Shown one piece after another: positions 7,153 through 36,537 of a stretch of DNA of 64,000 nt. How positions within the stretch are numbered: the stretch's first letter is position 1; the number at the start of each line of letters is the position of its first letter. The translations under genes were made by a program, and so were the position numbers. This DNA is from a virus (lineage: Duplodnaviria; Caudoviricetes): the IMG/VR virus record IMGVR_UViG_3300027969_004220, positions 32,001 through 96,000 of that record. The stretch is one strand, 5' to 3'. Under the pieces are notes generated by a model. That model searched no databases. It was not told the DNA's origin and was given only the letters and a program-made list of their open reading frames with translations.

Positions 7153-7183
7153 TTTGGTGAATTAAAAACTTATCGTATCTTTG
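7153..7183 (+). promoter_or_regulatory. Host-type promoter of attenuated tRNA array 1
   Basis: TTTG-N19-TATCTTTG. Confidence 0.8.
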
Positions 7184-7221
7184 TAGAAGAATTAAAAACA
7201 ACAATTTAAAAAATAGAAAAA

Positions 7222-7323
7222 ATGACAACAATTACTAACATAACAATAGCTATCGAAGCCATAGGCGGGTATGAAGCGGGGTATACAATACCATCGGTCA
7301 GAAGCGTTATGTGTATAAAGTAA
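7222..7323 (+). CDS. Attenuator leader peptide 1 (Ile/Ala/Glu/Gly/Tyr sensor)
   Basis: MTTITNITIAIEAIGGYEAGYTIPSVRSVMCIK*; codons 9-21 are all I/A/E/G/Y; five ATA codons. Confidence 0.8.
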   Translation: MTTITNITIAIEAIGGYEAGYTIPSVRSVMCIK

Positions 7324-7350
7324 TGAGTTGAAAAAACATTATTATACAAC

Positions 7351-7388
7351 AAACCCAATCTGACGTAAAAATCAGATTGGGTTTTTTT
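7351..7388 (+). terminator. Attenuator terminator 1
   Basis: AAACCCAATCTGA/TCAGATTGGGTTT stem plus T7; its 5' arm TCTGAC can instead pair with leader GTCAGA (7297-7302). Confidence 0.85.
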
Positions 7389-7402
7389 ATTGAATTATAT
7401 CT

Positions 7403-7488
7403 GGGTAGATATGCAAGTGGTTAAAGCTGGCAGACTGTAAATCTGTTCTCATTCGAGTTCGGGGGTTCGAATCCCTCTCTACCCACCA
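7403..7488 (+). tRNA. tRNA-Tyr(GTA)
   Basis: GCAGA-CTGTAAA-TCTGT, long variable arm, encoded CCA. Confidence 0.95.
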
Positions 7489-7494
7489 AAATAT

Positions 7495-7567
7495 GGTGTA
7501 TTCGTCTAGCGGTAAGGATTACGCTTTTTCAAAGCGGAGGACGTCGGTTCGAATCCGACATACACTA
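7495..7567 (+). tRNA. tRNA-Glu(TTC)
   Basis: ACGCT-TTTTCAA-AGCGG, GGTTCGAATCC. Confidence 0.9.
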
Positions 7568-7581
7568 CAAAAAACATAATC

Positions 7582-7649
7582 GGGATGGATTATGGTGATA
7601 GCCGGGTCTGTAAAACCCTAGCAGGAGAGTTCGAGTCTCTCGCATCCCA
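7582..7649 (+). tRNA. tRNA-Tyr(GTA)-like, atypical (short D region, no long variable arm)
   Basis: GGGT-CTGTAAA-ACCC, GAGAG-TTCGAGT-CTCTC, GGGATG/CATCCC. Confidence 0.6.
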
Positions 7650-7655
7650 CTGCAA

Positions 7656-7727
7656 GCTGCTATCGTCTAACGGTAGGACAACATCTTCTCAAGGTGTGAG
7701 ATACGGGTTCGACCCCCGTTAGCAGTA
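7656..7727 (+). tRNA. tRNA-Glu(CTC)
   Basis: ACATC-TTCTCAA-GGTGT. Confidence 0.9.
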
Positions 7728-7734
7728 CAAAAAT

Positions 7735-7957
7735 TGGGTTAACTTCCGGTGTAGGAACCGGCGTCCTCAGGTAAGGGAGGAAGCTAACAAAGCTAAGGAA
7801 AATGGTGGTAAACAAACCACAAGGTGCGAGACCCCTTTAGCCCACAAAGTAGATATTTGAGTGTAAGCAAGTACAATATCAGTCGTTAGGTTCTTACAGA
7901 CAGTGAACGATGGTCCGAATGTCATTATTCGGTGATGGATACCAGGCAACTCCATCA
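7735..7957 (+). ncRNA. Unidentified structured RNA(s) inside tRNA array 1
   Basis: GC-rich; closing helix TGGGTTAA/TTAGCCCA (7735-7844) encloses several hairpins, followed by a further hairpin series. Confidence 0.5.
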
Positions 7958-7962
7958 TATAT

Positions 7963-8034
7963 GATCCGGTCTTCTAATGGTCAGGAAGCAAGGTTTTCAT
8001 CCTTGTAATCAGGGTTCGATTCCCTGTCGGATTA
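7963..8034 (+). tRNA. tRNA-Glu(TTC)
   Basis: CAAGG-TTTTCAT-CCTTG. Confidence 0.9.
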
Positions 8035-8043
8035 CAAAAAAAC

Positions 8044-8118
8044 TGGTAAGTAGCTTAGACGGTAGAAGCATCTGTCTTATACACAGAAGATAGTCGGGTT
8101 CGATACCCACCTTACCAA
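8044..8118 (+). tRNA. tRNA-Ile(TAT)
   Basis: TCTGT-CTTATAC-ACAGA. Confidence 0.85.
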
Positions 8119-8125
8119 CAAAATC

Positions 8126-8199
8126 GCGGGAGTCGTATAATGGCTCGATTATGCTGGCTTTCCACGTCAGAGACGAGGGTTCGATTCCCTTCTCCCGCA
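8126..8199 (+). tRNA. tRNA-Gly(TCC)
   Basis: GCGGGAG/CTCCCGC, CTGGC-TTTCCAC-GTCAG. Confidence 0.9.
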
Positions 8200-8253
8200 C
8201 CGCAGACTTTTTTGACTTTTTTATTTTAATATATATAATAAAAAAGTCTGAAA

Positions 8254-8880
8254 ATGTCAAAAAATAAAATAAAGTATCACTTTTTGTATAAAACTACAAA
8301 TTTGATAAATAGTAAGTATTATTATGGAATGCATAGTACCTATAAACTAGATGATGGTTATTTAGGATCTGGTAAAATGTTAAGATACTCAATACGTAAA
8401 TATGGTAAAGAAAATTTTAACATCGAAATTATAGAATTTTTTCCTTCAAGAGAAGATTTAGTAAACGCTGAAATGAATTTGATTACAGAAGAAATGGTAG
8501 TTGATAACAAACTATGTATGAACCTTAAAAAAGGTGGTTTAGGTGGATTTACAAAAGAACAATCTCATAAAGGTGCATTAAGGATGTTAGATATAATATG
8601 GAGTGATAGTGATTTTATAACAAGACACAACGAAAGAAAAAGTAAGCTAATCAAAGAACTATATCTAAGTGGTAAAATAAAAAGATGTGACTGGACTGGT
8701 AGAAAACATAGTAAAGATACTATAGAGAAAATGACTTTATCTAAAAAAGGACAAGGATTAGGAGAATCTAATTCACAATTCGGAACTTGCTGGATAACAA
8801 AAGATGGAGAGAATAAAAAAATAACAAAAGAAAAATTAGAAGACTATTTGATGGATGGTTGGATAAATGGAAGAAAATAA
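8254..8880 (+). CDS. GIY-YIG (Seg-like) free-standing homing endonuclease with NUMOD3 motif
   Basis: FLYKTTNLINSKYYYGMH, YLGSG, GRKHSKDTIEKM; inserted between tRNAs. Confidence 0.85.
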   Translation: MSKNKIKYHFLYKTTNLINSKYYYGMHSTYKLDDGYLGSGKMLRYSIRKYGKENFNIEIIEFFPSREDLVNAEMNLITEEMVVDNKLCMNLKKGGLGGFTKEQSHKGALRMLDIIWSDSDFITRHNERKSKLIKELYLSGKIKRCDWTGRKHSKDTIEKMTLSKKGQGLGESNSQFGTCWITKDGENKKITKEKLEDYLMDGWINGRK

Positions 8881-8881
8881 T

Positions 8882-8953
8882 GCGAATGTAGCTCAGTGGT
8901 AGAGCTTCTGCTTGCCAAGTAGAAGGCCGCCGGTTCGACCCCGGTCATTCGCT
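8882..8953 (+). tRNA. tRNA-Gly(GCC)
   Basis: TCTGC-TTGCCAA-GTAGA. Confidence 0.92.
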
Positions 8954-9033
8954 CAGTATAAGTGGTTTAAGTTATAGAAATCTCTATATCTAAGACGTTA
9001 GATGAAAAATTTTTATACACCACTTTAATTATA

Positions 9034-9177
9034 AAGATAGTAGTAATATAAAGCGTTACTTCGTATTCAAACGACTATTATAGGTTCGAATCCTATTGTC
9101 TGCTCAAATAATTAAAAATGCAGATATAGTGTAATGGTAACACAGTAAAAACACGTTTAATAAACTTTCTCTATCTT
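9034..9177 (+). ncRNA. YrlA-like (bacterial Y RNA-type) permuted tRNA mimic
   Basis: Order is outer stem, T-arm (ATAGG-TTCGAAT-CCTAT), acceptor-like stem TGTCTGC/GCAGATA closed by a loop, D-arm (GTGT-AATGGTA-ACAC), then outer stem (AAGATAG/CTATCTT). Confidence 0.6.
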
Positions 9178-9182
9178 ACTTT

Positions 9183-9254
9183 GGGGCTATCGTATAATGG
9201 CTATTACACAGGATTTGCAATTCTGATATGAGATTTCGACTATCTCTAGCTCCA
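9183..9254 (+). tRNA. tRNA-Ala(TGC)
   Basis: GGGGCTA/TAGCTCC with G3:U70, CAGGA-TTTGCAA-TTCTG. Confidence 0.9.
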
Positions 9255-9429
9255 CAAAATAAAAATTAAATATGAAAACTAAAGAACAGTCGCTGGACGC
9301 ACTTTAGTCACAGAAGAATATAAATCTTACTGTGACGGTAATAAAACAGAAAGAATTAAAAGATCATTAGTAAAAAATGGTTCTCGTAATGATAGAAAAT
9401 TACAAAAATATTCTGATAAATTTAACAAA

Positions 9430-25537: not shown

Positions 25538-25621
25538 TTAGGTAGATAAGTAAACTTTTATTACTTTTGTACTATAAAAATAACAAATAAACAAAAAGAG
25601 AGAATAAACTTTTAATATATA
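25538..25621 (+). promoter_or_regulatory. Conserved dual-promoter module of attenuated array 2
   Basis: TTAG-N20-TACTTTTG, then AAACAAAAAG and TAATATATA; near-identical modules at 26717 and 35441. Confidence 0.75.
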
Positions 25622-25626
25622 CAATA

Positions 25627-25731
25627 ATGAAAACAACTAATCTAAATATTAACTTAACGCTGAATGTCTTATGTCTAAGACAAAGACCGGGTTTTGCCTT
25701 ATTTAGAGCAACTGATTTTGATGGTGTGTAA
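25627..25731 (+). CDS. Attenuator leader peptide 2 (Leu/Arg sensor)
   Basis: MKTTNLNINLTLNVLCLRQRPGFALFRATDFDGV*; six Leu codons (CTA, TTA, CTG) and three AGA. Confidence 0.75.
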   Translation: MKTTNLNINLTLNVLCLRQRPGFALFRATDFDGV

Positions 25732-25811: not shown

Positions 25812-25885
25812 GGCCCCGTAGCTCAGCTGGATAGAGCAACTCACTTCTAATGAGTAGGTCACAGGTTCGAATCCTGTCGGGGTCA
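25812..25885 (+). tRNA. tRNA-Arg(TCT)
   Basis: ACTCA-CTTCTAA-TGAGT. Confidence 0.95.
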
Positions 25886-25900
25886 CAAAAATAATCACCT

Positions 25901-25970
25901 GTCGGGGTGGTGGAATGGTAGACACGCAGCACTTAAAATGCTGTGCTCCAGAAGAGTCCCTTTCCCGATA
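25901..25970 (+). pseudogene. tRNA-Leu(TAA) lacking the 5' half of the T-arm
   Basis: D and anticodon arms intact (CAGCA-CTTAAAA-TGCTG); no GGTTCGA. Confidence 0.65.
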
Positions 25971-25978
25971 CAAAAAAT

Positions 25979-26065
25979 GCGTCTGTGGTGAAATTGGTAG
26001 TACACGCTGGGTTTAAGCCCCAGTGGTCAGGAATGATCGTGAGGGTTCGACTCCCTCCAGACGTA
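25979..26065 (+). tRNA. tRNA-Leu(TAA)
   Basis: CTGGG-TTTAAGC-CCCAG, long variable arm. Confidence 0.92.
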
Positions 26066-26074
26066 CAAAAATAT

Positions 26075-26155
26075 GCCTCAGTAGTCCCAGTTGTCTTCTA
26101 AACAACTACGGGTAATTGGAAACTGAAAATGTAGGTTCGAATCCTATCTGGGGTA
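26075..26155 (+). tRNA. Atypical tRNA-Arg(TCT): no D-arm, D-loop-like insert 3' of the anticodon arm
   Basis: GCCTCAG/CTGGGGT, GTTGT-CTTCTAA-ACAAC, GTAGG-TTCGAAT-CCTAT. Confidence 0.6.
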
Positions 26156-26166
26156 CTAATACACAA

Positions 26167-26249
26167 GCCGAGGTGGTGGAATGGTAGACACGCTGGTCTA
26201 AGAAGCCAGTGTCCGAAAGGACGTGCGGGTTCGAGTCCCGCTCTCGGTA
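26167..26249 (+). tRNA. tRNA-Leu(AAG)
   Basis: CTGGT-CTAAGAA-GCCAG, long variable arm. Confidence 0.88.
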
Positions 26250-26251
26250 CA

Positions 26252-26518
26252 ATGAAAGAAATAAATTATATACAGTACACATCATATACATTATTATCAA
26301 GTGGTGGTGTATTTAAGGTAAATTCAGCAATGCCTTTACCGAATTTAGATAAACACTTGAATGAGAGTATAAACTTAATTATGTTTGTAGTTCATAATAT
26401 AAAGTGTAATGATAAAGAAGTAATGTTTTATAATAGAGATCTATTTAGATTGACATATGGATCAAAAGAATGTTCTGAAATGATTATGAAAATGAAACAT
26501 TCACATATATTAGAATAA
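26252..26518 (+). CDS. Hypothetical protein inside tRNA array 2
   Basis: 88 aa, exactly fills the gap between two tRNA-Leu genes. Confidence 0.5.
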
Positions 26519-26519
26519 T

Positions 26520-26601
26520 GTCGGAGTGATGAAATGGTAGACGTGCTTGGCTCAAGACCGAGTGTCCAAAAGACGTGTGGGTTCGAATCCCACCTTCGAT
26601 A
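26520..26601 (+). tRNA. tRNA-Leu(CAA)
   Basis: CTTGG-CTCAAGA-CCGAG. Confidence 0.92.
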
Positions 26602-26609
26602 CAAAATAT

Positions 26610-26696
26610 ACCCCTATGAGCAAATAGGCAAAGCTTGCTGGCTTAGACCCAGTGGAAAACAATGATACATTCTCGGTTCGAGTCCGAGTAGGGGTA
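26610..26696 (+). tRNA. tRNA-Leu(TAG)
   Basis: GCTGG-CTTAGAC-CCAGT. Confidence 0.88.
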
Positions 26697-26716
26697 CAAA
26701 GAAAAATTAAAAAAGA

Positions 26717-26797
26717 TTAGGTAGATTAAAAAACTAATAGTATATTTGTACTATAAATAAAGATAAACAAAAAGGGACAATAAAAATTTAATATATA
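26717..26797 (+). promoter_or_regulatory. Conserved dual-promoter module of attenuated array 3
   Basis: TTAG-N20-TATATTTG ... AAACAAAAAG ... TAATATATA. Confidence 0.75.
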
Positions 26798-26802
26798 ATA
26801 TA

Positions 26803-26892
26803 ATGAAAACAAATACTGTAAATATTAATGTGATTACGATTACGAATTGTGTGAATAGCACGACTTCGGGTAATGAGATATGTATGGTATAA
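26803..26892 (+). CDS. Attenuator leader peptide 3 (Asn/Ile/Val/Cys/Thr sensor)
   Basis: MKTNTVNINVITITNCVNSTTSGNEICMV*; codons 3-18 are all T/N/V/I/C. Confidence 0.8.
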   Translation: MKTNTVNINVITITNCVNSTTSGNEICMV

Positions 26893-26919
26893 AGTTAAAG
26901 TATATTATAATAAATTCAT

Positions 26920-26951: not shown

Positions 26952-26970
26952 CATGTCAAAAAATAAATAT

Positions 26971-27041
26971 TCTTCTATAGTGAAATGGTATCACGTCTGA
27001 CTGTTAATCAGTTATTCCAGGTTCGAGCCCTGGTGGAAGAG
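26971..27041 (+). tRNA. tRNA-Asn(GTT)
   Basis: CTGA-CTGTTAA-TCAG. Confidence 0.9.
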
Positions 27042-27047
27042 CAAAAT

Positions 27048-27135
27048 TACTGGGTTGCCATAGCCAGGTCGAATGGTTCGGACTGTTAATCCGATGAGCA
27101 TCGCTCCACCGTGGGTTCGAATCCCACCCCAGTAG
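27048..27135 (+). tRNA. tRNA-Asn(GTT) with long variable arm
   Basis: TCGGA-CTGTTAA-TCCGA, variable stem GAGC/GCTC. Confidence 0.8.
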
Positions 27136-27144
27136 CAAATATAT

Positions 27145-27225
27145 TGGCAAATACCAGCCCAACCTGATAAGTTGGAGAACTGTAGTGGTAAGTTGAAAAC
27201 GTGGGTTCGAATCCCACTTTGCCAA
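27145..27225 (+). tRNA. Atypical tRNA-Ile(GAT): no D-arm, D-arm-like hairpin 3' of the anticodon arm
   Basis: TGGCAAA/TTTGCCA, CCAAC-CTGATAA-GTTGG, AACT-GTAGTGGTA-AGTT, GTGGG-TTCGAAT-CCCAC. Confidence 0.6.
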
Positions 27226-27349
27226 CAAAAAAAATAAAATAATAATTATGAAAATGAAAGAGAATTTATTAAATAGTTCGGTTAGTAGTTAAAAAAAGTG
27301 ATAAAAGTGAGTTATAATTTTTTATATATACAATAAATAAAAAACTATA

Positions 27350-27886
27350 ATGGAAAAAGATAAAATGATAGAACTAATCGAGTTAGGTTACTCACAAAGG
27401 AATCTTGCGGAAGAACTAAAAACATCACAATCTAATGTTAAATATTGGTTAAAAAAATTTGAAATAAGTACAAAATATAAAAAAAATAATATAGATAAAC
27501 ATATAATTGATGGTGGTAAAAATTGTCCTAAATGTAATGAGTTAAAAGATGTGGATGACTTTTATAAAAGAAGTAGTATAAATAGAAACGGAACCGCGGG
27601 TTATTGTAAAAAATGTAGTAATATTTATCATGGTGCTAGATTAAAGAAAGTTAAATTAAAAATGATTTTATATAAAGGTGGTAAATGTTGTGATTGTGAA
27701 CTAAACCATGAAAATACACACTATTGTGTTTTTGATTTTCATCACTTAGATCCAAATACTAAAGACCCAAACTTTAATAAAATTAAATATCAAAAATGGG
27801 AAAAAATTAAAGAAGAAATTGATAAATGTGTATTATTGTGTGCGAATTGTCACCGTTTAAGACACTCTGTTATCAGTGGATGGTAA
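27350..27886 (+). CDS. HNH homing endonuclease with N-terminal HTH and Zn-binding motifs
   Basis: CPKC..CKKC; CCDC..FDFHHLDP..KCVLLCANCHRLRH. Confidence 0.85.
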   Translation: MEKDKMIELIELGYSQRNLAEELKTSQSNVKYWLKKFEISTKYKKNNIDKHIIDGGKNCPKCNELKDVDDFYKRSSINRNGTAGYCKKCSNIYHGARLKKVKLKMILYKGGKCCDCELNHENTHYCVFDFHHLDPNTKDPNFNKIKYQKWEKIKEEIDKCVLLCANCHRLRHSVISGW

Positions 27887-27898
27887 ATAAATAAAAAT

Positions 27899-27981
27899 AG
27901 GTCTATGGTGTAATGGCAACATCCTTCTTTTACATGGAAGAGACGTGAAGTATAATCTCGGTTCGAGTCCGAGTAGACCTA
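27899..27981 (+). tRNA. tRNA-Val(TAC), extended variable region
   Basis: CTTCT-TTTACAT-GGAAG. Confidence 0.8.
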
Positions 27982-27987
27982 CATAAT

Positions 27988-28063
27988 GGTTCCTTAGCTC
28001 AGTTGGTTCAGTAGCGTCTGTTTTACACGCAGAAGGTCATAGGTTCGAATCCTATAGGAATCA
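27988..28063 (+). tRNA. tRNA-Val(TAC)
   Basis: TCTGT-TTTACAC-GCAGA. Confidence 0.92.
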
Positions 28064-28069
28064 CAATAT

Positions 28070-28143
28070 TGGTAGTTAGCTCAACTGGTTAGAGCACTTC
28101 GCTGATACCGAAGAGGTTATGGGTTCGACTCCCTTACTACCAA
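28070..28143 (+). tRNA. tRNA-Ile(GAT)
   Basis: CTTCG-CTGATAC-CGAAG. Confidence 0.9.
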
Positions 28144-28151
28144 CAAAAAAT

Positions 28152-28239
28152 GGCATAGTGTCTGAGTGGTCGAAAGATGCGGTCTGCAAAACCGTAATGA
28201 TTAAGTTCATCATCGTAGGTTCAAATCCTACCTATGCTT
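28152..28239 (+). tRNA. tRNA-Cys(GCA) with long variable arm
   Basis: GCGGT-CTGCAAA-ACCGT, U73. Confidence 0.85.
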
Positions 28240-28245
28240 CTAAAT

Positions 28246-28325
28246 GGTTGGTCACTGTAAATGGCTTCACAGTGGGACGGTACGTGGAATTTATTCCTAA
28301 GTGGGTTCGAGACCCACATCAACCT
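28246..28325 (+). ncRNA. tRNA-like RNA without a recognisable anticodon arm
   Basis: GGTTGGT/ATCAACC acceptor, T-arm GTGGG-TTCGAGA-CCCAC, 6-bp CACTGT/ACAGTG hairpin. Confidence 0.5.
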
Positions 28326-28332
28326 CAATAAT

Positions 28333-28406
28333 GGCGCGGTGGCCGAGTGGCACGTAGGCGGTGGATTGCAAACTCACACACACTGGTTCGAATCCAGTCC
28401 GCGCCT
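28333..28406 (+). tRNA. tRNA-Cys(GCA)
   Basis: GGCGCGG/CCGCGCC, loop TTGCAAA, U73. Confidence 0.88.
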
Positions 28407-28413
28407 CGAGACG

Positions 28414-28468
28414 AGACTGTTACTAATTCATAGGGGCCCATACGATGTAAGTGTCTGCGTAGAATTAG
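28414..28468 (+). ncRNA. Repeated pseudoknot-like spacer RNA, copy 1
   Basis: AGACYGTTACTAATTCATAGGG..GTCTGCGTAGAATTAG, also at 36082. Confidence 0.55.
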
Positions 28469-28473
28469 AAAAT

Positions 28474-28546
28474 GCCGATATAGCTCAATAGGTAGAGTGC
28501 CAACTTGGTAGGTTGGAGGTTAAGGGTTCGATTCCCTTTATCGGAT
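28474..28546 (+). tRNA. tRNA-Thr(GGT)
   Basis: CCAAC-TTGGTAG-GTTGG. Confidence 0.88.
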
Positions 28547-28554
28547 CAAATAAT

Positions 28555-28635
28555 GCTGGTGTTGCGTAGTGGCCGATCGCACCTACCTTGTAAGTAGGAA
28601 TTCCAACGTCGCAGGTTCGAATCCTGTCACTAGCT
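28555..28635 (+). tRNA. tRNA-Thr(TGT)
   Basis: CCTAC-CTTGTAA-GTAGG. Confidence 0.88.
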
Positions 28636-28639
28636 CGAC

Positions 28640-28673
28640 AAAAAAGACTTCTTTTAATTAAGAAGTCTTTTTT
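28640..28673 (+). terminator. Terminator ending tRNA array 3
   Basis: AAAAAAGACTTCTT/AAGAAGTCTTTTTT. Confidence 0.8.
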
Positions 28674-28722
28674 ATTTTAAACTAAATCCATATCTTTGTA
28701 TAGAATAATAAATACTACTATT

Positions 28723-29500: not shown

Positions 29501-29502
29501 AA

Positions 29503-29901
29503 TTAGTAATAACCTTTCCCAATAACAGAGTGTCTAACTCCACCTCTTGGATTTTCTACGTCACCAGTATATCTTGGAATTAAATGACAATGAAATTGCA
29601 TTACAGTTTGTCCTGCTGTTTCACCACAATTCATACCTATATTGTAACCATCTGGTTCATATTGTGATTCAACTATCTCCTTTGCTTTATCTAGCATTTC
29701 AGATAGTTTATTCCTTTTAGATTGACTTAAATCAAAGTAAGTTTCTTCTGGTCCATTTGTTATAATAAGTATATGACCTGGACTTGTTGGAAATCCATCA
29801 AACATTATAAAGAAGTCACTATCTTGATATAAGATTTTATCATCTTCTATCATATGTCTTCCGAACTTAACATCTTCATTTAAACTTGTAAATTTTCTCA
29901 T
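29503..29901 (-). CDS. HIT family nucleotide hydrolase
   Basis: FPTSPGHILII, GYNIGMNCGETAGQTVMQFHCHLIPRY. Confidence 0.92.
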   Translation of the reverse strand: MRKFTSLNEDVKFGRHMIEDDKILYQDSDFFIMFDGFPTSPGHILIITNGPEETYFDLSQSKRNKLSEMLDKAKEIVESQYEPDGYNIGMNCGETAGQTVMQFHCHLIPRYTGDVENPRGGVRHSVIGKGYY

Positions 29902-29913
29902 AATGTATATATT

Positions 29914-32121
29914 TTATTCAAATAGTTGGAAATTTGGTAAAACCAGACGAGTATTTGCGTTGTCTGCAAAAACTAAATACTTAGAATCGTCTCTAATAAT
30001 AGCTTGATTAAGTATCTTATCAAATGTAGATTCTGGTATAATATCAGTAAATAATCTAATATTAGTTGCTTTCATATCAGATCCTAATAATTGAGGATTC
30101 GTATTTTCAATTGTAAATTCAATTGGAGTCATATCTTGTTCATCAGAATAAACTTTTCTTAGGAAGTTATTTGTAAGTTTACCAGCCTCATCTTCAAAAT
30201 CAACATTACGCTTATAAACAAATTGAGAAATTTTTCTATTTCTTTGATCAACATTTAATGTATAGCAATACCAAACTTCTTCATCTAATATTAAATCAGA
30301 ATTAGTTGTATAAGTATCACCATTTAATGTAACTGTTATTACATCATTTACTAAGTTTACTTTCCAACCAATTAGATTCTCATCATCATAGAAGTTAAAG
30401 AAGTTATAAATCTCACCATCTATATAATTATTGATACTAAACCAAATAGTAAATCCAATATTATCAGAAACTTTTAGAATAGGATCAGAGTTAAAGTAAT
30501 TTACAGCTGGTATTCCTGCATCAACTGAGAATAAGTCATAATTTGATTTAGATATTATAGTAGATGAGTTTTCAATTAGTTCTTTATTTATACTAGCTAA
30601 GTATTCTAATCTAATTAAATCCTTAGTTAAAGTTCTTGTTTGAACCTTATTAGCTACTGCTCTCTTATCATCAGTATTCTCAACACCAAATAATGAATCA
30701 ATTGTAGTATTCTGTGTAAGCATATCCAATTTGTTTTGGATCTCTGTTGTACCAGCTTGTACATTTGCTTTTTGGTTGTATTTTTTCAGAATCAATTTAT
30801 AATAAACTGAAGAGTTATTAAATCCTCTAAATTGAGATACGTGATCTACTTGAAACATTCTACTTAATTGACAGAAAAACATAAAGTCTTCTTTACCTGG
30901 TCTTCTTTGAGCACCAAATACACTTTTAAATTGCTCTTTGGTAATATGTACTTCCATATTATCAAATAAACTTAAATCAAATTGATTCATCGTAATTTGT
31001 GAGTCTGGAAATTCATTATTATTTACCGATACTTTAACATCACCTTCACAAACAATATTATACAATTGATATTCGTGCATTGAGTAATCTTGTCCTTTTG
31101 CATCTGGATCAGTTACAAAGTAAACAACTTGATGTCCAAACATCATTTGAGCATCAGTACTTAATTTATTCAAAAGATTTAGTGCAGTACTTTGATTATA
31201 AGGATTGTAAAGAAGTGCTTGTTGGTCTTTAGTCATTGGTGAAAAAATATTAGCGGTATCACAACTTCCTTTACCATCTGAATTTAGATTAGTATTAGGT
31301 ATGAAATTTCCATTAGCATCATATGTACCAGTTAAATTAGACTGACAACATTCTCTTAAACCATATAAATTACTTTTCTGATAATCTAAAGTAACATTTT
31401 GAAAATTACCAATTAAATTTATATCTTGTATCTTTACAGGAACACCAGATTTATTTTCTATTGAGTATTCAACTTCAAAAAATCTTGTTGGAGTTAGTCT
31501 TTTTGTAGATACATTTTCTTTAGTTAAAAATTCCCAATCTGACCAAGTTCTTGAATTATCTTGTGAGTATCTCCATTTCAAATCTACACCTTGTATACCA
31601 GTAGATGATATTACTTCAACATCTTCTAACTTAAAAACTTTATAGATAAAAGGTGGTTTAATTACCTGAATACCACCAGAAACCAATTGAACTGCAGAAC
31701 CATCATCGGTCATAGGTCTTTCAGTTTCACATTCAATTGCATATTCTAATATTCTAATTGAACCAAGTGAATTAGTTCCCTTTCTAACCCACTTTATATC
31801 TAGGTATAAAGGGTCCAAAGGATCGATTGGTGGAAAGTTATCAATATATTTTTTTAAGTCAAACCAAGTAGTCCATTTTTGACCATCTCTTGATAAACGA
31901 TAATATTGTGCTAAATATCTTGTAGTAGATAAACCTAAAGTATCGTAAGTAAATTTGGTTATCTTACTAATATTTTGTAAATTTGTAAAACTGATTATGT
32001 ACTCTTCTTCTATATTATTAATATAAGGTGTTGCATCGGGTGCTGAAGCACTAGCACTTATGTTAAATTTATCAGAAATAACAGTGGAACCATTTAAAAC
32101 ATTTGTATCTATTGTAAACAT
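29914..32121 (-). CDS. Virion protein with T4 gp14-like neck domain and a C-terminal LamG-like region
   Basis: GHQVVYF..EVHITKEQF..RPGKEDFMFF..RMFQVDHV resembles gp14 neck proteins. Confidence 0.55.
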   Translation of the reverse strand: MFTIDTNVLNGSTVISDKFNISASASAPDATPYINNIEEEYIISFTNLQNISKITKFTYDTLGLSTTRYLAQYYRLSRDGQKWTTWFDLKKYIDNFPPIDPLDPLYLDIKWVRKGTNSLGSIRILEYAIECETERPMTDDGSAVQLVSGGIQVIKPPFIYKVFKLEDVEVISSTGIQGVDLKWRYSQDNSRTWSDWEFLTKENVSTKRLTPTRFFEVEYSIENKSGVPVKIQDINLIGNFQNVTLDYQKSNLYGLRECCQSNLTGTYDANGNFIPNTNLNSDGKGSCDTANIFSPMTKDQQALLYNPYNQSTALNLLNKLSTDAQMMFGHQVVYFVTDPDAKGQDYSMHEYQLYNIVCEGDVKVSVNNNEFPDSQITMNQFDLSLFDNMEVHITKEQFKSVFGAQRRPGKEDFMFFCQLSRMFQVDHVSQFRGFNNSSVYYKLILKKYNQKANVQAGTTEIQNKLDMLTQNTTIDSLFGVENTDDKRAVANKVQTRTLTKDLIRLEYLASINKELIENSSTIISKSNYDLFSVDAGIPAVNYFNSDPILKVSDNIGFTIWFSINNYIDGEIYNFFNFYDDENLIGWKVNLVNDVITVTLNGDTYTTNSDLILDEEVWYCYTLNVDQRNRKISQFVYKRNVDFEDEAGKLTNNFLRKVYSDEQDMTPIEFTIENTNPQLLGSDMKATNIRLFTDIIPESTFDKILNQAIIRDDSKYLVFADNANTRLVLPNFQLFE

Positions 32122-32221
32122 AATTTATATATTAAAAAAATAATTCTATAATCTTTTGTTATATTAAATAATATGTGTATATTTGCATGTTATTAATTAT
32201 AATAATAAAAAAATCGCTAAA

Positions 32222-33445
32222 ATGAATATAACAAAAAAATTCTTACAACTAACATCTAGAACTTACCCTCACGGTACTGAGCAAGAACTTTTTCACTTGT
32301 TACCGAAAAGTTTGAAAGAGGATGAATTTGGTAACTTATTTATTAAAATAGGTGAAAGTGATGTTATGTTTACTTCACACTTAGATACCGCAACTAAAGC
32401 AAATACAGAAGTCGTTCACATTTTTGACGGAGATATTATCAAAACTGATGGTAAATCTATCTTAGGTGCCGATGATAAAGCTGGTGTAACAATTATGTTA
32501 AACATGATAGAAAAAAATATTCCAGGTTTATATTACTTTTTCTTAGGAGAAGAAGTAGGTTGTATTGGTTCGAGAAAAGTTGCAGACGTACAAAAAGTAG
32601 AGAAAATTCCAGGTATCAACAAAGTAATTTCTTTTGACCGTAGAAGTACTGATTCTATCATTACATTTCAAAGTTCAAAAAGATGTTGTTCAGATACATT
32701 TGGTGAAGCTCTTGCAAAAGCATTTAATGATGTTGAAGAAACATTCTCATATAAATTAGACAAAAATGGTGTTTTAACTGACTCTATACAATTTATTAGT
32801 ATTTATCCAGAATGTACAAACATTTCTGTTGGTTATTACTCTGAACACACTTTCTCTGAAAGACAAGATATTGGTCACTTAACTAAATTAGCGGCAGCTT
32901 GTTTAAAAGTTGACTGGTCTTCTTTACCAGTAGAAAGAGATCCTTCAAAAGTTGAGTACGATTACTCTTGGGGTGGTTATGGTTACGGTGATGGTGATTG
33001 GGGTGCTTGGGGTGGTTCAAGATATGACACTGGTAACTATACCAATGCCTATGCTTCAACAAATGTGATGGATAACGATTATAGTTCTTCAAGAACTAGA
33101 CAACAAGGAGCTTACAGAGTGAAAACTGAAAAGTCTTATTTCTATGATGAATTGTTCCAATACTTATCTATGATTGAAACAAATGCCACAACTGGTAAAA
33201 TAGTTAAAGTAGAGTTGATTGAGGATAGAATTAAATATGAAGCTCAACTTATTACAAGATTGTTCAAAGATATTGAACTACACTATACTAAATTAGAATG
33301 GGATGGTTTCAAATGTACTGTATTCTATGAGTTAGAGCACAGAACTGAATGTGATAGAAATGATTTACTAGAATACTTACCAGACTTAGATTACCGTGGT
33401 ATTGAAATATTAGGTGATTATGACGATAGTGTCTATATGTGTTAA
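32222..33445 (+). CDS. M20/M28 family zinc peptidase
   Basis: SHLDT, LGADDKAG, GEEVG, FDRR, NISVGYYSEH. Confidence 0.85.
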   Translation: MNITKKFLQLTSRTYPHGTEQELFHLLPKSLKEDEFGNLFIKIGESDVMFTSHLDTATKANTEVVHIFDGDIIKTDGKSILGADDKAGVTIMLNMIEKNIPGLYYFFLGEEVGCIGSRKVADVQKVEKIPGINKVISFDRRSTDSIITFQSSKRCCSDTFGEALAKAFNDVEETFSYKLDKNGVLTDSIQFISIYPECTNISVGYYSEHTFSERQDIGHLTKLAAACLKVDWSSLPVERDPSKVEYDYSWGGYGYGDGDWGAWGGSRYDTGNYTNAYASTNVMDNDYSSSRTRQQGAYRVKTEKSYFYDELFQYLSMIETNATTGKIVKVELIEDRIKYEAQLITRLFKDIELHYTKLEWDGFKCTVFYELEHRTECDRNDLLEYLPDLDYRGIEILGDYDDSVYMC

Positions 33446-33474
33446 AAAAAGTCGAGAGAAATCTCGACTTTTTT
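33444..33474 (+). terminator. Intrinsic terminator
   Basis: AAAAAAGTCGAGA-GAAA-TCTCGACTTTTTT. Confidence 0.8.
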
Positions 33475-33522
33475 GTTTTCTTATAATTGTAATTTAATAT
33501 ATAAGAAAATTGATTACATTAA

Positions 33523-34740
33523 ATGACAAACATATTTGATAAGGAAGTATGGATTAAACTTCTACCTAAAAAACTTACTATTGTTGATAATAATGGTACT
33601 TACGAATTAGTATATTCTGATTGTTCAGTAAATGGTGTTTCTCATAAAGTAGAAATTATGTACTTTCACTCTACACCTAATAATCCTAATGATGTAAATA
33701 AAGATGGTGAACCAGATATGTTACAGTTTGATATACATATGGTTAAAACAAATGATGGCACCGAAGCAAATCCAGACAATCTTAAATTAAATATAGATGT
33801 TACTTACGGAGATGCAATGTTATCTCAATTTAGTATTTCAAAACCTGATCAGATTGAGGTCGGTCAATATAATGGATTTGGATCTAAATATGACAAAGAA
33901 ACATTTTTTGGATTTGAAGATGATTCAATAAAAGATTTAGTAGAGTTTTTTAATAGATTAGGATTTGAACTAACAGTAAAGGATTTTACTTTTATCGATA
34001 AATATCCTGATACATATACTTATACCGAATCAATTAAACTAATGCCTAGTTTTAATGGTGATGTTGTTTTAGTAGTAAATAATACAAAACCACAGGAAAA
34101 TAGATATTTAACAAATGTTACAAACTATTTAAAAGAAAGAGGTATTGATCATGTCATTGCTTCTAATGAAGAAGAAATTAAAAAGAATAATAATGACAAA
34201 GTAATTGGTGCAATTTCAACTGGATCTGAATATAGATTATCTAATCCAGAATCTGACAGTGAATTTTCTGCAAGTTCAGAAGCTCTAAAATCTTTACAAT
34301 GTCCTATATTAGGAATGTGTTATGGAATGCAACATATGGGTATTGAAAATGGTGCTAATTTAGCAACTTTGGATAAAGTTTATACTAACCATTCTACGTT
34401 AGATGATTATGATAAAGAACATCCTTTATTTAAAGATGTCGATTTATCAAATACTCAAGCAAGCTTTGATTTTAATGACTATTTAGAAGATTGTCCCCAG
34501 GGATTTAAAACAATTGCTAAATTAGGTGATAAAGTTGCCGGTATATCAAATGATGAAAAGAAACATTATGGTTTACTTTTTCATCCAGAAGATATAGAAG
34601 ATACACAAGGAATATTAGATAATTTTATAAATATGTGTAAGTCAGGAAGATCTAATAATGACGAACAAGGTATAGATCAATCTAAGAATGATATGAAATA
34701 CATACAAACTTACGAAAGTTTTAGAAAAAAAAGAAAATAA
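33523..34740 (+). CDS. Unknown N-terminal domain fused to a class I glutamine amidotransferase domain
   Basis: PILGMCYGMQ, FHPE; C-terminal MKYIQTYESF. Confidence 0.75.
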   Translation: MTNIFDKEVWIKLLPKKLTIVDNNGTYELVYSDCSVNGVSHKVEIMYFHSTPNNPNDVNKDGEPDMLQFDIHMVKTNDGTEANPDNLKLNIDVTYGDAMLSQFSISKPDQIEVGQYNGFGSKYDKETFFGFEDDSIKDLVEFFNRLGFELTVKDFTFIDKYPDTYTYTESIKLMPSFNGDVVLVVNNTKPQENRYLTNVTNYLKERGIDHVIASNEEEIKKNNNDKVIGAISTGSEYRLSNPESDSEFSASSEALKSLQCPILGMCYGMQHMGIENGANLATLDKVYTNHSTLDDYDKEHPLFKDVDLSNTQASFDFNDYLEDCPQGFKTIAKLGDKVAGISNDEKKHYGLLFHPEDIEDTQGILDNFINMCKSGRSNNDEQGIDQSKNDMKYIQTYESFRKKRK

Positions 34741-34745
34741 ATAAT

Positions 34746-34979
34746 ATGAGTACAATTCCACAAATCGAGACAACAGAAGATCAAACTCAACGTTCAATCT
34801 CAGCCGCATTTGATTCAGTAAATTTAATCAATGAGTTAAAAACAAAACCTTCTTTAACAGAAGAAGAACAAGATAGATTAGACAGAAACAAAGAACACTT
34901 AACAATAATGTTAGGTAAAGATTGGTTTGATGCTGGTTTAACAGAACAACAAAGAAATGACATAAACGCTTGTCTATAA
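34746..34979 (+). CDS. Hypothetical protein
   Basis: 77 aa. Confidence 0.65.
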   Translation: MSTIPQIETTEDQTQRSISAAFDSVNLINELKTKPSLTEEEQDRLDRNKEHLTIMLGKDWFDAGLTEQQRNDINACL

Positions 34980-34996
34980 AAAAATAAATAACCAAC

Positions 34997-35260
34997 ATGG
35001 CTGAAGTTGATGATAAAATTGAAGGTTTGGAAGAATCTAAAATAAATGAATCTAGTATTGACTATGATGTATTAGATAAAATGGTTAAATTACCTTGTTA
35101 TAACAAACTAAGAGAAGATCTTAGAGGTGCTATACAAGAGTTTACATCATGTATATCTGATAGTTCATCAGAAATCGGATATGATGAAGGTGATACAGAC
35201 CATGATATGGCTTTTAATGCAGCAATACAACAAGCAATTGACGAAATAGTTGGTTGGTAG
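34997..35260 (+). CDS. Hypothetical acidic protein
   Basis: 87 aa. Confidence 0.65.
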   Translation: MAEVDDKIEGLEESKINESSIDYDVLDKMVKLPCYNKLREDLRGAIQEFTSCISDSSSEIGYDEGDTDHDMAFNAAIQQAIDEIVGW

Positions 35261-35308
35261 TTTGGATAAAAGAAAAATATTTGTATCTTTGTCAAAATAA
35301 TAGAAATA

Positions 35309-35434
35309 ATGGCTGGTAAAAAAGGACAGTTTGCTGTTTGTAAAGAATGGGCTAAACACTTGAGAAAGAAATACAAAAGAATCTTTTGGAGCTCAGAAAG
35401 AGCACTTTCCAAAAAAGAAATTAAAAAAATCTAA
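35309..35434 (+). CDS. Small basic protein (not in ORF track)
   Basis: MAGKKGQFAVCKEWAKHLRKKYKRIFWSSERALSKKEIKKI*, after TTTG-N19-TATCTTTG. Confidence 0.6.
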   Translation: MAGKKGQFAVCKEWAKHLRKKYKRIFWSSERALSKKEIKKI

Positions 35435-35440
35435 TAATAA

Positions 35441-35523
35441 TTAGGTAGATTGAAAACTTTATATTACTTTTGTAGTATAAAATCAAAGAAAAACAAAAAG
35501 GAACAATAAAAGTTTAATATATA
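35441..35523 (+). promoter_or_regulatory. Conserved dual-promoter module of attenuated array 4
   Basis: TTAG-N20-TACTTTTG ... AAACAAAAAG ... TAATATATA. Confidence 0.75.
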
Positions 35524-35528
35524 GTAAT

Positions 35529-35627
35529 ATGAAAAATGTAAATGTAAATATCGTAGTTATGCCGCAGCCGATGCAGGATCAGGATCGTTTCACGAACCAG
35601 ACTAACTATGTATTTATATCACATTAA
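35529..35627 (+). CDS. Attenuator leader peptide 4 (Met/Pro/Gln/Asp sensor)
   Basis: MKNVNVNIVVMPQPMQDQDRFTNQTNYVFISH*; nine consecutive M/P/Q/D codons. Confidence 0.85.
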   Translation: MKNVNVNIVVMPQPMQDQDRFTNQTNYVFISH

Positions 35628-35650
35628 GAAATTACGTGTATAAAAATTAC

Positions 35651-35685
35651 AAATCCGTTAGTCTTTGAGACTAACGGATTTTTTT
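35651..35685 (+). terminator. Attenuator terminator 4
   Basis: AAATCCGTTAGTCT-TTG-AGACTAACGGATTT plus T-run; leader AGACTAAC (35599-35606) is complementary to GTTAGTCT (35657-35664). Confidence 0.88.
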
Positions 35686-35704
35686 ATGGAATAAAATTAA
35701 ATAT

Positions 35705-35776
35705 TGGAGTATCGTATAATGGTAATTATTCAGGGTGTTGGCCCCTGCGATTTGGGTTCGAATCCTAATACTCTAA
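35705..35776 (+). tRNA. tRNA-Gln(TTG), G at position 33
   Basis: CAGGG-TGTTGGC-CCCTG. Confidence 0.75.
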
Positions 35777-35785
35777 CAAAATTAT

Positions 35786-35847
35786 GGGACCATGGTTGAA
35801 TGGTTTACAATGCCACCCTGTTGCGGGTTCGAATCCCGTTGATCCCG
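35786..35847 (+). pseudogene. tRNA-Asp-like with the 3' half of the anticodon arm deleted
   Basis: CCACCCTGT is followed directly by T-arm GCGGG-TTCGAAT-CCCGT. Confidence 0.55.
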
Positions 35848-35854
35848 CTAAAAT

Positions 35855-35927
35855 AGTTATATAGCTCAGTGGTTAGAGTGCTAGGTTGTCGCCCTAGAGG
35901 TCGCGGGTTCGATCCCCGTTATAACTG
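35855..35927 (+). tRNA. tRNA-Asp(GTC)
   Basis: CTAGG-TTGTCGC-CCTAG. Confidence 0.9.
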
Positions 35928-35999
35928 CAAATGTAATCCTTCAGTCAACAGTGAGGAGAATGAATACCCTAATGCTTGTGTAGGGAGGTTACATAAATT

Positions 36000-36072
36000 G
36001 GTTTATAGGTCAAATGGCTAAGATGTCCGGCTGTCGCCCGGTACGGAGAGGGTTCGAATCCCTCATAGACCG
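36000..36072 (+). tRNA. tRNA-Asp(GTC)
   Basis: CCGG-CTGTCGC-CCGG. Confidence 0.85.
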
Positions 36073-36081
36073 CTGCATGGT

Positions 36082-36130
36082 AGACCGTTACTAATTCATA
36101 GGGACAGAAAGTTGGTCTGCGTAGAATTAG
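36082..36130 (+). ncRNA. Repeated pseudoknot-like spacer RNA, copy 2
   Basis: GTAGACC/GGTCTGC crossed with CTAATTC/GAATTAG. Confidence 0.55.
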
Positions 36131-36135
36131 AATTA

Positions 36136-36208
36136 CTAGGTGTAGGAAAGTTGGTATTCCGCGTGCTTTGGGAGCACGAGATCGCAGGTTCGAGCCCTGT
36201 CACTTAGA
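36136..36208 (+). tRNA. tRNA-Pro(TGG)
   Basis: CGTGC-TTTGGGA-GCACG. Confidence 0.9.
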
Positions 36209-36212
36209 CTAA

Positions 36213-36287
36213 CGCGTAACGATCCACAGAGAGAGGTTACCCGCCTTGGACGCGGGGTTATTGCAGGTTCGAGTCCTGTTTACGCGA
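36213..36287 (+). tRNA. tRNA-Pro(TGG), divergent D-arm
   Basis: CCCGC-CTTGGAC-GCGGG. Confidence 0.75.
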
Positions 36288-36293
36288 CTAAAT

Positions 36294-36378
36294 AGCTACA
36301 GCGCATAATGGCTGGTGTGCCTGACTGTCACTCAGGTGTTGATTTTCAACGTAGCGGGTTCGATTCCCGTTGTAGCTG
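36294..36378 (+). tRNA. tRNA-Asp(GTC) with long variable arm
   Basis: CCTGA-CTGTCAC-TCAGG, variable stem GTTGA/TCAAC. Confidence 0.8.
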
Positions 36379-36384
36379 CAATAT

Positions 36385-36455
36385 TGGAATATGATGTAAC
36401 GGTAGCATCACATCTTTTGACGGTGTTTGTGGAGGTTCGAATCCTCCTATTCCAA
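36385..36455 (+). tRNA. tRNA-Gln(TTG)
   Basis: ACATC-TTTTGAC-GGTGT. Confidence 0.9.
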
Positions 36456-36465
36456 CAAATAAAAT

Positions 36466-36537
36466 GGCGTTGTAGCTCAGAGGCAGAGCGGTCGGTTCAT
36501 ATCCTTCAGGACGGGATCTCGGAATTCCCCAACGCTA
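36466..36537 (+). tRNA. tRNA-Met(CAT), weak anticodon stem and atypical T-loop
   Basis: GGCGTTG/CAACGCT, loop TTCATAT. Confidence 0.6.

Follow-up and report, generated by a model that had tools for sequence, protein, structure and literature searches.

Codon-matched leader cassettes as probable transcription attenuators of tRNA arrays in an uncultured giant phage

Studying a window of 64,000 nucleotides (nt) of phage DNA, which comprises positions 32001-96000 of a single contig of 105,621 base pairs (bp; IMG/VR virus record IMGVR_UViG_3300027969_004220), we found that its arrays of tRNA genes are each preceded by a short open reading frame (ORF) and an intrinsic terminator. The codons of these leader ORFs match the tRNAs of the array behind them, and a segment of each ORF is predicted to pair with the 5' arm of the terminator. 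Architecture, codon match, alternative pairing, covariation of this pairing and co-evolution of leaders and arrays were all computed directly. Very probably the cassettes are real, codon-specific ribosome-mediated (leader-peptide) transcription attenuators placed before tRNA arrays. Leader-peptide attenuation is a textbook mechanism of amino-acid biosynthesis and of a few synthetase genes (trp, his, ilvGMEDA, thr, pheST).

Cassette layout and codon content

The identical order of ORF, terminator and first tRNA gene is found before all six tRNA arrays of the contig (6/6), four of which lie in the window (leaders L1 to L4) and two upstream of it (L5 and L6). The six ORFs have start and stop codons and comprise 25-36 codons, those of the window 29-34. 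All four window cassettes are on the plus strand. L1 (7222-7323, 33 codons, peptide MTTITNITIAIEAIGGYEAGYTIPSVRSVMCIK, with codons 9-21 as sensor run) is separated by 27 nt from the 5' arm of its terminator (7351-7388), and the T-run of the latter ends 14 nt before the Tyr gene at 7403. L2 (25627-25731, 34 codons, MKTTNLNINLTLNVLCLRQRPGFALFRATDFDGV) is followed after 28 nt by the terminator at 25760-25792 and, 19 nt behind the T-run, by Arg(TCT) at 25812. The corresponding distances are 27 and 19 nt for L3 (26803-26892, 29 codons, MKTNTVNINVITITNCVNSTTSGNEICMV; terminator 26920-26951; Asn at 26971), and 23 and 19 nt for L4 (35529-35627, 32 codons, MKNVNVNIVVMPQPMQDQDRFTNQTNYVFISH; terminator 35651-35685; Gln at 35705). 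A note made earlier from the letters of the window (the original prediction) had claimed one common architecture for these four arrays, and all four cassettes indeed stand where it had placed them, with the spacings confirmed. All leaders begin with a common A/T-rich preamble, MK(T/N)xNxNI.

The folded regions downstream of the ORFs contain terminator hairpins with free energies of -14.9 to -20.4 kcal/mol and T-runs 14-19 nt before the first tRNA, and the minimum-free-energy fold of the full leader includes the terminator in 6/6 cases. A promoter motif of the Bacteroidota style (TT[AT]GGT-N14-22-TAnnTTTG) matches the contig 11 times where 1.0 matches are expected. Five of these eleven matches precede L1 to L5, and L6 lacks an upstream motif. 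Scanning with the motif placed the promoter-like sites of cassettes 1 to 4 at 7153..7183 (TTTGGT-N-TATCTTTG), 25538..25569, 26717..26748 and 35441..35472, all on the plus strand. Another promoter-like site (25430-25537) is located 108 nt upstream of the L2 promoter and has a short G+C-richer segment behind it.

Another motif, TTTAATATATA, occurs 9 times against 0.86 expected, namely at window positions 6906, 8225, 10802(-), 25611, 26787, 32126(-), 33493, 35513 and 45919(-), and is also present before L5 and L6. For L2, L3, L4 and two other genes its distance to the ATG is 4-6 nt; two further ORFs and a pair of initiator-like tRNA genes have it 18-19 nt upstream. TTTAATATATA is regarded as a candidate phage promoter or initiation signal.

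By ARAGORN and Rfam, array 1 (7403..9255) encodes Tyr, Glu, Tyr-like, Glu(CTC), Glu, Ile(TAT), Gly(TCC), Gly(GCC) and Ala(TGC) tRNAs, with a GIY-YIG-like ORF between the two Gly genes. Array 2 (25812..26697) comprises Arg(TCT), Leu(TAA), Leu(AAG), Leu(CAA), Leu(TAG) and two weaker tRNA-like genes; array 3 (26971..28636) two Asn, Ile(GAT), an ORF, two Val(TAC), Ile(GAT), two Cys, Thr(GGT) and Thr(TGT); array 4 (35705..36537) Gln, a truncated Asp-like gene, two Asp, two Pro, Asp, Gln and Met(CAT). All four are encoded on the plus strand.

To compare leaders with arrays, the array anticodons were decoded by standard wobble and the cognate codons were counted in every leader. Out of 720 permutations, the true assignment of leaders to arrays alone ranks first, with a diagonal of 76 against 65 for the next best and a mean of 32. 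It keeps this rank with strict and with amino-acid-level scoring, and for the four window leaders alone it is first of 24 (1/24), so that the claim of leaders carrying the codons of their own array is borne out. Binomial p values against the codon usage of the phage are 0.024, 0.008, 7e-9, 0.005, 0.001 and 1e-5 for L1 to L6, the third value reflecting that 21/28 codons of L3 are cognate. The phage's own proteins, cut into about 24,000 sliding windows, served as empirical control; runs of cognate residues as long as those in L1 (13), L3 (16), L4 (9) and L6 (9) do not occur in them even once. For L1, whose 13 residues are all from {A,E,G,I,Y}, the count is 0/24,031, and for the nine consecutive cognate codons of L4 it is 0/24,105.

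The match extends to isoacceptors. ATA is used five times in L1, which precedes Ile(TAT), versus ATT three times in L3, which precedes Ile(GAT), and likewise AGA goes with Arg(TCT) versus CGC with Arg(ACG). L6 holds all three groups of Ser codons read by the anticodons UGA, GGA and GCU (TCA/TCG, TCT, AGT). In L2, 9/33 codons are cognate to the Arg(TCT) and Leu tRNAs of array 2 (AGA x3; TTA, CTA, CTG), and its non-cognate N/T/V/C codons largely match array 3, the next array downstream.

Both cassettes upstream of the window had been predicted before they were seen, in the form of a Phe/His/Lys/Ser/Trp leader elsewhere in the genome, and both are followed by matching arrays. L5 (contig 22382-22492, peptide MRTNSIHTSFSKSFKWFSHKFGCMSMSFSKEDVILG) is rich in S/F/K/H/W, and behind its terminator follow Lys, Trp, His, Lys, Phe, His, Phe and an interrupted tRNA-Asn. 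L6 (contig 24177-24254, MKTIITTSSSSSSRSSNLREVLLCS) has a Ser run and one Arg codon, and its terminator is followed by Arg(ACG), two Ser(TGA), Ser(GGA) and Ser(GCT). The Ser codons of L5 are 2.7-fold enriched; the Ser array lies directly downstream, behind L6.

Alternative pairing and the position of the ribosome

According to the proposed mechanism, transcription would start at a Bacteroidota-type promoter and a ribosome would translate the leader of 25-36 codons. If the aminoacyl-tRNAs for the sensor codons were scarce, the ribosome would stall within the sensor run; the tRNAs sensed in this way would belong to the same isoacceptor families as those encoded by the downstream array. A stalled ribosome would leave the downstream ORF segment free to pair with the emerging 5' arm of the terminator, the terminator would be blocked, and RNA polymerase would continue into the array. 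During fast decoding, by comparison, the ribosome would cover the ORF segment, reach the stop codon and keep the two strands apart, so that the terminator hairpin could form 21-29 nt behind the stop codon and end transcription. The product of an array would thereby shut off its own synthesis, and each cassette would act as a homeostat of tRNA supply for its codon families during infection.

ORF segments complementary to the terminator 5' arm had been claimed for each window leader, and they exist: GTCAGA in L1, CGGGTTTT in L2, TTCGGGT in L3 and AGACTAAC in L4. When the transcript is cut just before the 3' arm and folded, the 5' arm pairs with the ORF segment in 6/6 leaders, the segment being located just downstream of the end of the sensor run or overlapping this end. 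In L1 (7297..7318) the antiterminator consists of the strand GTCAGA and a second helix formed by the end of the ORF around the stop codon, and in the folds of the truncated transcript the strand pairs with 7342-7363. The segment of L2 (CCGGGTTTTG, 25687..25696) forms 8 bp with the 5' arm (shuffle p about 0.01), that of L3 (CTTCGGGTA, 26864..26872) 7 contiguous bp (shuffle p <= 0.006), and that of L4 is CAGACTAACT (35598..35607); all are on the plus strand. The duplex between ORF and 5' arm is better than in shuffled sequences for L2, L3 and L5 (p <= 0.02), and L4 is a borderline case (0.07); for L1 and L6 the antiterminator is based on longer, bipartite folds of the truncated transcripts. Across all genomes the duplex beats shuffles at p <= 0.05 in 35/49 cassette rows, a set which includes duplicate terminator boundaries and two false terminators.

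Sequence changes among related cassettes are the stronger evidence for this pairing. In 14 cassettes of the Lys/Trp/His/Phe type, the 5'-arm base after CCGAAC pairs with its ORF base as C:G seven times and as T:A six times, with one mismatch; the pairs were counted by sequence anchors, as the MAFFT alignment misaligned the antiterminator segment between lineages. Because the seven C variants form C:A mismatches with the terminator's own 3' arm, the constraint on this base comes from the antiterminator and not from the terminator. The TTCGG core of the ORF strand is found in frame 0, 1 or 2 depending on the lineage and, being kept in all three reading frames, is conserved as RNA. GTTAGT, opposite ACTAAC of the ORF, is common to three unrelated terminators of relatives in the L4 family, and one relative shows a compensatory pair (CAG>CAA in the ORF together with C>T in the arm). 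In relatives of L2 (loci L008 and L009) the arm has G>A and the ORF the compensating C>T, even though this turns Pro into Met. A covariation analysis of the two folds had been proposed with the original prediction, and these pairs, the compensatory changes and the retention in three frames support the antiterminator fold.

The position of the ribosome was considered with a footprint model in which it covers 15 nt from the A-site codon and the transcript is folded as cut before the 3' arm. With the A site at or before Tyr21 of L1, Asp19 of L4 or Ser15 of L6, the predicted pairing of the 5' arm amounts to 0.5-0.7, and it is lost 1-3 codons later. The last permissive A-site codon of the model is thus the last sensor codon in L1 (Tyr21), L4 (Asp19) and L6 (Ser15/16). 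In the other three leaders it would fall short of the end of the sensor run, by a few codons in L2 (Leu17), by one in L3 (Val17) and by five to six in L5 (Lys15/Trp16). Each ORF has another 7-17 codons between the segment's end and the stop codon, and a ribosome moving along them would keep the two strands separate during synthesis of the terminator.

Leaders, arrays and tRNA genes in this and other genomes

The window leaders were compared with their orthologues for their substitution patterns. Sensor codons 9-21 of L1 show 5 synonymous and 0 non-synonymous changes and the sensor of L6 3 and 0, and the nine sensor codons of L4 are unchanged where the remaining ORF has 4 synonymous and 5 non-synonymous changes. 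The L3 sensor has 8 non-synonymous entries in four pairwise comparisons, some of which recur across comparisons and may be single events; seven stay within the amino-acid set of the array (N>T, V>I, V>T, T>N, S>N) and one is N>M. In one relative a stop breaks the preamble of L4, and the ORF begins directly at MPQPMQDQD. This pattern is as expected if selection sees the identity of the decoded tRNA, and sensor changes which are synonymous only, with the amino acid kept, would be the signature of a translated frame.

Orthologous cassettes of all six types are present in close IMG/VR relatives, in which the neighbouring proteins are 61-94% identical, so that these relatives show conservation and not independence. 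More distant genomes were found through a terminator-like 32-mer, the only match of cassette 3 in a blastn search of INPHARED, which hit LR756501.1 and LR756503.1. LR756501.1 (735,411 bp, an uncultured phage, unannotated) harbours five cassettes, among which the amino acids are distributed differently. A leader with ..KYNDYCIND.. belongs to Ile/Cys/Asp/Asn/Tyr, a Leu-rich leader to five Leu tRNAs, SKHSKHFSSSSKWF to Trp/His/Phe/Lys/Ser, IINMIQEQMQQIQ to Glu/Met/Gln/Ile(TAT) and TPAPAVAFRRGTGTGTGTCVPAGCG to Arg/Pro/Ala/Thr/Val/Gly. On the codon as well as on the amino-acid level, the true assignment scores above all others of the 120 permutations. Between the terminator and the array of the first of these leaders lies a gene for ribosomal protein L7/L12 (L033:7960-8331, minus strand; PF00542, E = 2.6e-19), which the attenuator would also gate.

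A third partition is found in LR745206.1 (634,780 bp, unannotated). There SYESYYEEG precedes Glu/Tyr and ISIAVIGNGAGAI precedes Ile(TAT)/Gly/Met/Ala, two parts of what is array 1 in the window; a single leader, TTMNLNMTMNLTLNVVNITLCNIR, stands before the 21 tRNAs that combine arrays 2 and 3; the counterpart of array 4 is again split, with Pro/Asp behind PVNPQPQDQDP and three Gln behind QQIQQQQ. The true assignment is also here the unique best of 120 permutations. Because it is so in both LR756501.1 and LR745206.1, the leaders follow their arrays through splits and merges, and the lack of correlation between leader codons and array contents that had been named as a refutation is not seen in these two genomes. 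The Lys/Trp/His/Phe leaders of all three genomes look homologous, therefore the genomes are probably distantly related. Two cassettes of leader and terminator, both of the Lys/Trp/His/Phe/Ser type, are arranged in tandem before one array (L006:4584-4897 and L007:8916-9220), each with its own matched antiterminator pair. Among the INPHARED records, blastn of window 25400-29000 gave 1008 records with tRNA-sized pieces throughout, none covering 80%, tblastn of the L4 peptide gave zero matches, and no cultured phage with such cassettes was found by these searches.

Four RNA-library runs were compared with window 17000-36900, all of them as assembled Logan contigs, which are uninformative on transcript ends, strand and level. 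One lake metatranscriptome has identical contigs over protein-coding parts of this region, and short RNA-library contigs touch the L2/L5-type and L3 leader regions, with no bearing on termination or read-through.

The source of the contig is an uncultured freshwater giant phage with Bacteroidota-like hosts. Near-identical DNA comes from 24 runs of 13 studies, mostly freshwater and lake metagenomes, alongside four RNA libraries in which its share is small. The contig has a G+C content of about 30% and an estimated completeness of 38% (CheckV), and its auxiliary genes encode a nicotinamide phosphoribosyltransferase, a ClpB-like ATPase and a 5'-nucleotidase. ARAGORN finds 31 tRNAs in the window, and the Rfam scan at gathering score gives 33 tRNA matches, all RF00005. 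Window tRNAs are organised in the four plus-strand arrays and the pair of initiator-like tRNAs with CAT anticodon (6933..7125, plus strand; contig 38933-39125), and contig-wide every tRNA match falls within the six arrays or this pair. Taken together, the six arrays cover all twenty amino acids.

The initiator-like pair was said in the original prediction to have no cassette; it has a promoter, an ORF-plus-terminator cassette was not found before it, and it seems not to be gated. This fits the logic of attenuation, because elongation cannot sense an initiator tRNA. Its first member (6933-7006) is called under relaxed settings only. The Met tRNA of array 4 (36466-36537) is missed by ARAGORN and detected only by Rfam, with 36 bits, its CAT anticodon being read by eye. 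With introns allowed and the threshold at 80%, ARAGORN made 229 calls, most of them spurious, and this setting was used inside the arrays only.

Several tRNA genes of the arrays are unusual. The tRNA-Asn(GTT) at the end of the L5 array (contig 24002-24133; L037:1753-1884) is interrupted by an insert of 58 nt in the anticodon stem, and excision of contig 24030-24087 restores a canonical tRNA of 74 nt. Several tRNAs that usually belong to class I exceed the normal length (Asn 89 nt, Ile 94, Val 84, Cys 89, Thr 82, Asp 86; window 27048-27226, 27899-27982, 28152-28240, 28555-28636 and 36294-36379), which suggests inserts or extra arms resembling that of the interrupted tRNA-Asn. Structured, G+C-richer stretches at 7730-7960 and 9034-9177 lie between tRNAs and are not called as such. 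The 62-nt tRNA-like gene at 35786-35847 (Rfam 36.7 bits) looks like a shortened version of the full-length tRNA-Asp(GTC) that one relative (L009) has at the same place.

The ORF inside array 1 (8254-8880) has a weak match to SegE GIY-YIG (E = 9e-4, below the cut-off), and the Cys-rich ORF inside array 3 (27350-27886) is without Pfam match. Arrays of all relatives are interrupted by similar ORFs at varying places, like those of homing endonucleases. A distant relative (L028; G006:C1:56945-57096) has two adjacent tRNAs with the amber-reading anticodon CTA behind a promoter and without a leader, which hints at reassignment or suppression of TAG in that phage.

Weighing the attenuators and comparison with known systems

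Several observations weigh against codon-specific attenuation. Leader translation, stalling and conditional read-through are what we infer from support that is computational throughout. The enrichment of cognate codons is only moderate in L2 (empirical p = 0.013) and in L5 (0.056 with the set F/H/K/N/W), and the simple duplexes of L1 and L6 are no better than shuffles (p 0.2-0.4). The last 1-6 sensor codons of L2, L3 and L5 are too near to the antiterminator segment or inside it, and with a leading edge of 15 nt a stall at these codons would not free the segment. The transcript without a ribosome is also predicted to be antiterminated (pairing of 5' arm and ORF 0.29-0.71), and a trp-like 1:2 anti-antiterminator or pause hairpin was not found in the folds of the truncated transcripts. 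These elements are characteristic of the trp subtype, and other attenuators can do without them. Since the untranslated transcript would antiterminate and has no 1:2 anti-antiterminator, termination would depend on the coupling of transcription and translation. TTTAATATATA, which is found inside arrays before the endonuclease-like ORFs, may be an internal promoter by which distal tRNAs bypass the attenuator. As the genomes are phylogenetically linked, the three permutation tests are not fully independent. Finally, the G/C-ending sensor codons pointed out in the original prediction are in real excess among the cognate codons (26/73 versus 9.3 expected), but the excess is not specific to the sensor; non-cognate leader codons have it equally (32/103 versus 12.1 expected), and we rejected it as evidence of sensing.

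The predicted read-through without ribosomes leads to an alternative in which the attenuators report general translation capacity or the coupling of ribosome and polymerase, and not specific tRNAs. A shortage of ribosomes, late in infection or under global translation stress, would then cause antitermination by default and turn on all arrays together. This would agree with an antiterminated no-ribosome state in five or six of six leaders and with the preamble common to all of them. We nevertheless regard it as unlikely, for it fails to explain why each leader spells the codons of its own array (1/720, 1/120 and 1/120), why leaders split and merge with their arrays, and why the sensors evolve synonymously or within the amino-acid set of the array. 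More doubtful still is that the terminators are leaky insulators or processing signals behind untranslated ORFs, whose composition would match the arrays as a by-product of RNA constraints or shared ancestry. It is true that we infer the translation of the leaders, that Bacteroidota have no Shine-Dalgarno sites by which initiation could be judged from sequence, and that part of each ORF is constrained as RNA, with the same element kept in different reading frames. This explanation is nevertheless very improbable in view of sensor codons which change synonymously and keep the amino acid (5:0 and 3:0), a leader composition which tracks that of the arrays through three partitions, and runs of 9-16 cognate residues with no counterpart in the control windows.

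Runs of cognate codons adjoining a switch of terminator and antiterminator would also be in line with a leader RNA which binds tRNAs directly through codon-anticodon contacts, free of the ribosome and in the manner of a T-box. As specifier elements, however, stretches of as many as 16 consecutive codons for 5-7 different amino acids would be unprecedented, all leaders have a frame from ATG to stop in which the substitutions follow the genetic code, and the Rfam scan of the window finds tRNA only and no T-box or other leader family. Direct binding is hence hardly to be expected. Membership in the T-box class itself was rejected, as the window has no match to the Rfam covariance model with its specifier loop and T-box sequence, and so were the Rfam families of amino-acid operon leaders (His, Thr, Leu, Trp), as 33/33 matches are RF00005.

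As to the function of codon-specific attenuation, the arrays could serve to replace tRNAs lost to host shut-off or anticodon nucleases, or it could be a matter of simple economy. Depletion of tRNAs by anticodon nucleases or by starvation is a conceivable trigger, and counter-defence a conceivable purpose. A tentative possibility, which we put forward with some reserve, is a modular and inducible counter-measure to tRNA loss, in which only the matching replacement array would be transcribed and would switch itself off once decoding recovers. Each leader would serve as a test translation by which one subset of the cell's decoding capacity is continuously monitored during infection. The depletion of particular tRNAs might be brought about by host shut-off, by an anticodon nuclease or another tRNA-cleaving defence of the host, or by the codon demand of the phage itself, and in some relatives the output would include ribosomal protein L7/L12. 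In that case a virus would exert closed-loop control of the tRNA pool, resolved by codon family.

If the attenuators are real, attenuation would act on tRNA genes themselves, and the speed at which codons are decoded would set the supply of the tRNAs reading them. This would be a new answer to the question how and when phage tRNAs are expressed, and it would explain why these giant phages sort their tRNA genes by amino acid into separate arrays. The purpose of viral tRNAs, that is matching of codon usage versus replacement of degraded host tRNAs, would become directly testable. The leaders would be compact, portable sensors of individual aminoacyl-tRNA pools and potential reporters in Bacteroidota or cell-free systems. 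Such cassettes can be found from sequence alone, and two published huge-phage genomes (LR756501.1 and LR745206.1) carry them unannotated.

Multivalent leader-peptide attenuators are known from enterobacteria, as in ilvGMEDA (Ile/Leu/Val) and thr (Thr/Ile), besides those of trp, his, leu and pheA. In common with these, the phage cassettes have a short leader ORF with regulatory codons, an intrinsic terminator, a mutually exclusive antiterminator, a switch by ribosome position as proposed, and several amino acids sensed by one leader. They differ in that tRNAs and not biosynthetic enzymes would be regulated, the gene of the sensed molecule being itself the output, which closes the loop. Moreover, a single phage leader covers up to 6-7 amino acids, the 1:2 anti-antiterminator or pause hairpin is missing, the untranslated state is predicted to read through, and the elements belong to a phage of Bacteroidota-like hosts and match no Rfam leader family. 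In E. coli the pheM leader of the pheST attenuator controls phenylalanyl-tRNA synthetase by the supply of Phe-tRNA. There, too, leader-peptide attenuation acts on a component of the translation apparatus, but the system is cellular and concerns one synthetase and a single amino acid, whereas in the phage whole tRNA arrays and, in LR756501.1, also the L7/L12 gene would be controlled. T-box riboswitches likewise sense the state of a specific tRNA and switch between terminator and antiterminator upstream of translation-related genes. They bind uncharged tRNA directly and without translation, however, while the phage elements look like translated frames and have no match to the T-box.

No account of leader-peptide attenuation of tRNA genes was found by full-text search of the literature, mostly at the level of listings and abstracts, in agreement with the original prediction, whose author knew of none. 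The main text of PMC7162821, which we take to be the source paper of LR756501.1 and LR745206.1, has 0 occurrences of 'attenuat', 'leader', 'terminator' or LR756501, and its supplements list the tRNAs per genome. In Anabaena sp. PCC 7120 the trn operon, a silent array of 26 tRNA genes, is induced under translational stress (PMC10272220). It is regulated at the promoter, where direct repeats are bound by the repressor TrcR (PMC10272220; PMC8421152), and in the text of PMC8421152 available to us 'attenuat', 'leader' and 'terminator' have 0 occurrences. As far as these texts go, the trn operon is the nearest functional parallel in print: an accessory tRNA array is off and is switched on when translation is impaired, but under promoter control by TrcR and without codon-specific sensing. 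The tRNAs of phages T4 and T5 replace host tRNAs which are degraded or cleaved by anticodon nucleases, and we know of no account of these phages that describes a tRNA-sensing control of the tRNA genes. The tRNA sets of T4 and T5 and those of the giant phage thus have in common that they sustain translation in the infected cell, whereas the cassettes described here apparently make tRNA expression conditional on the speed of decoding.

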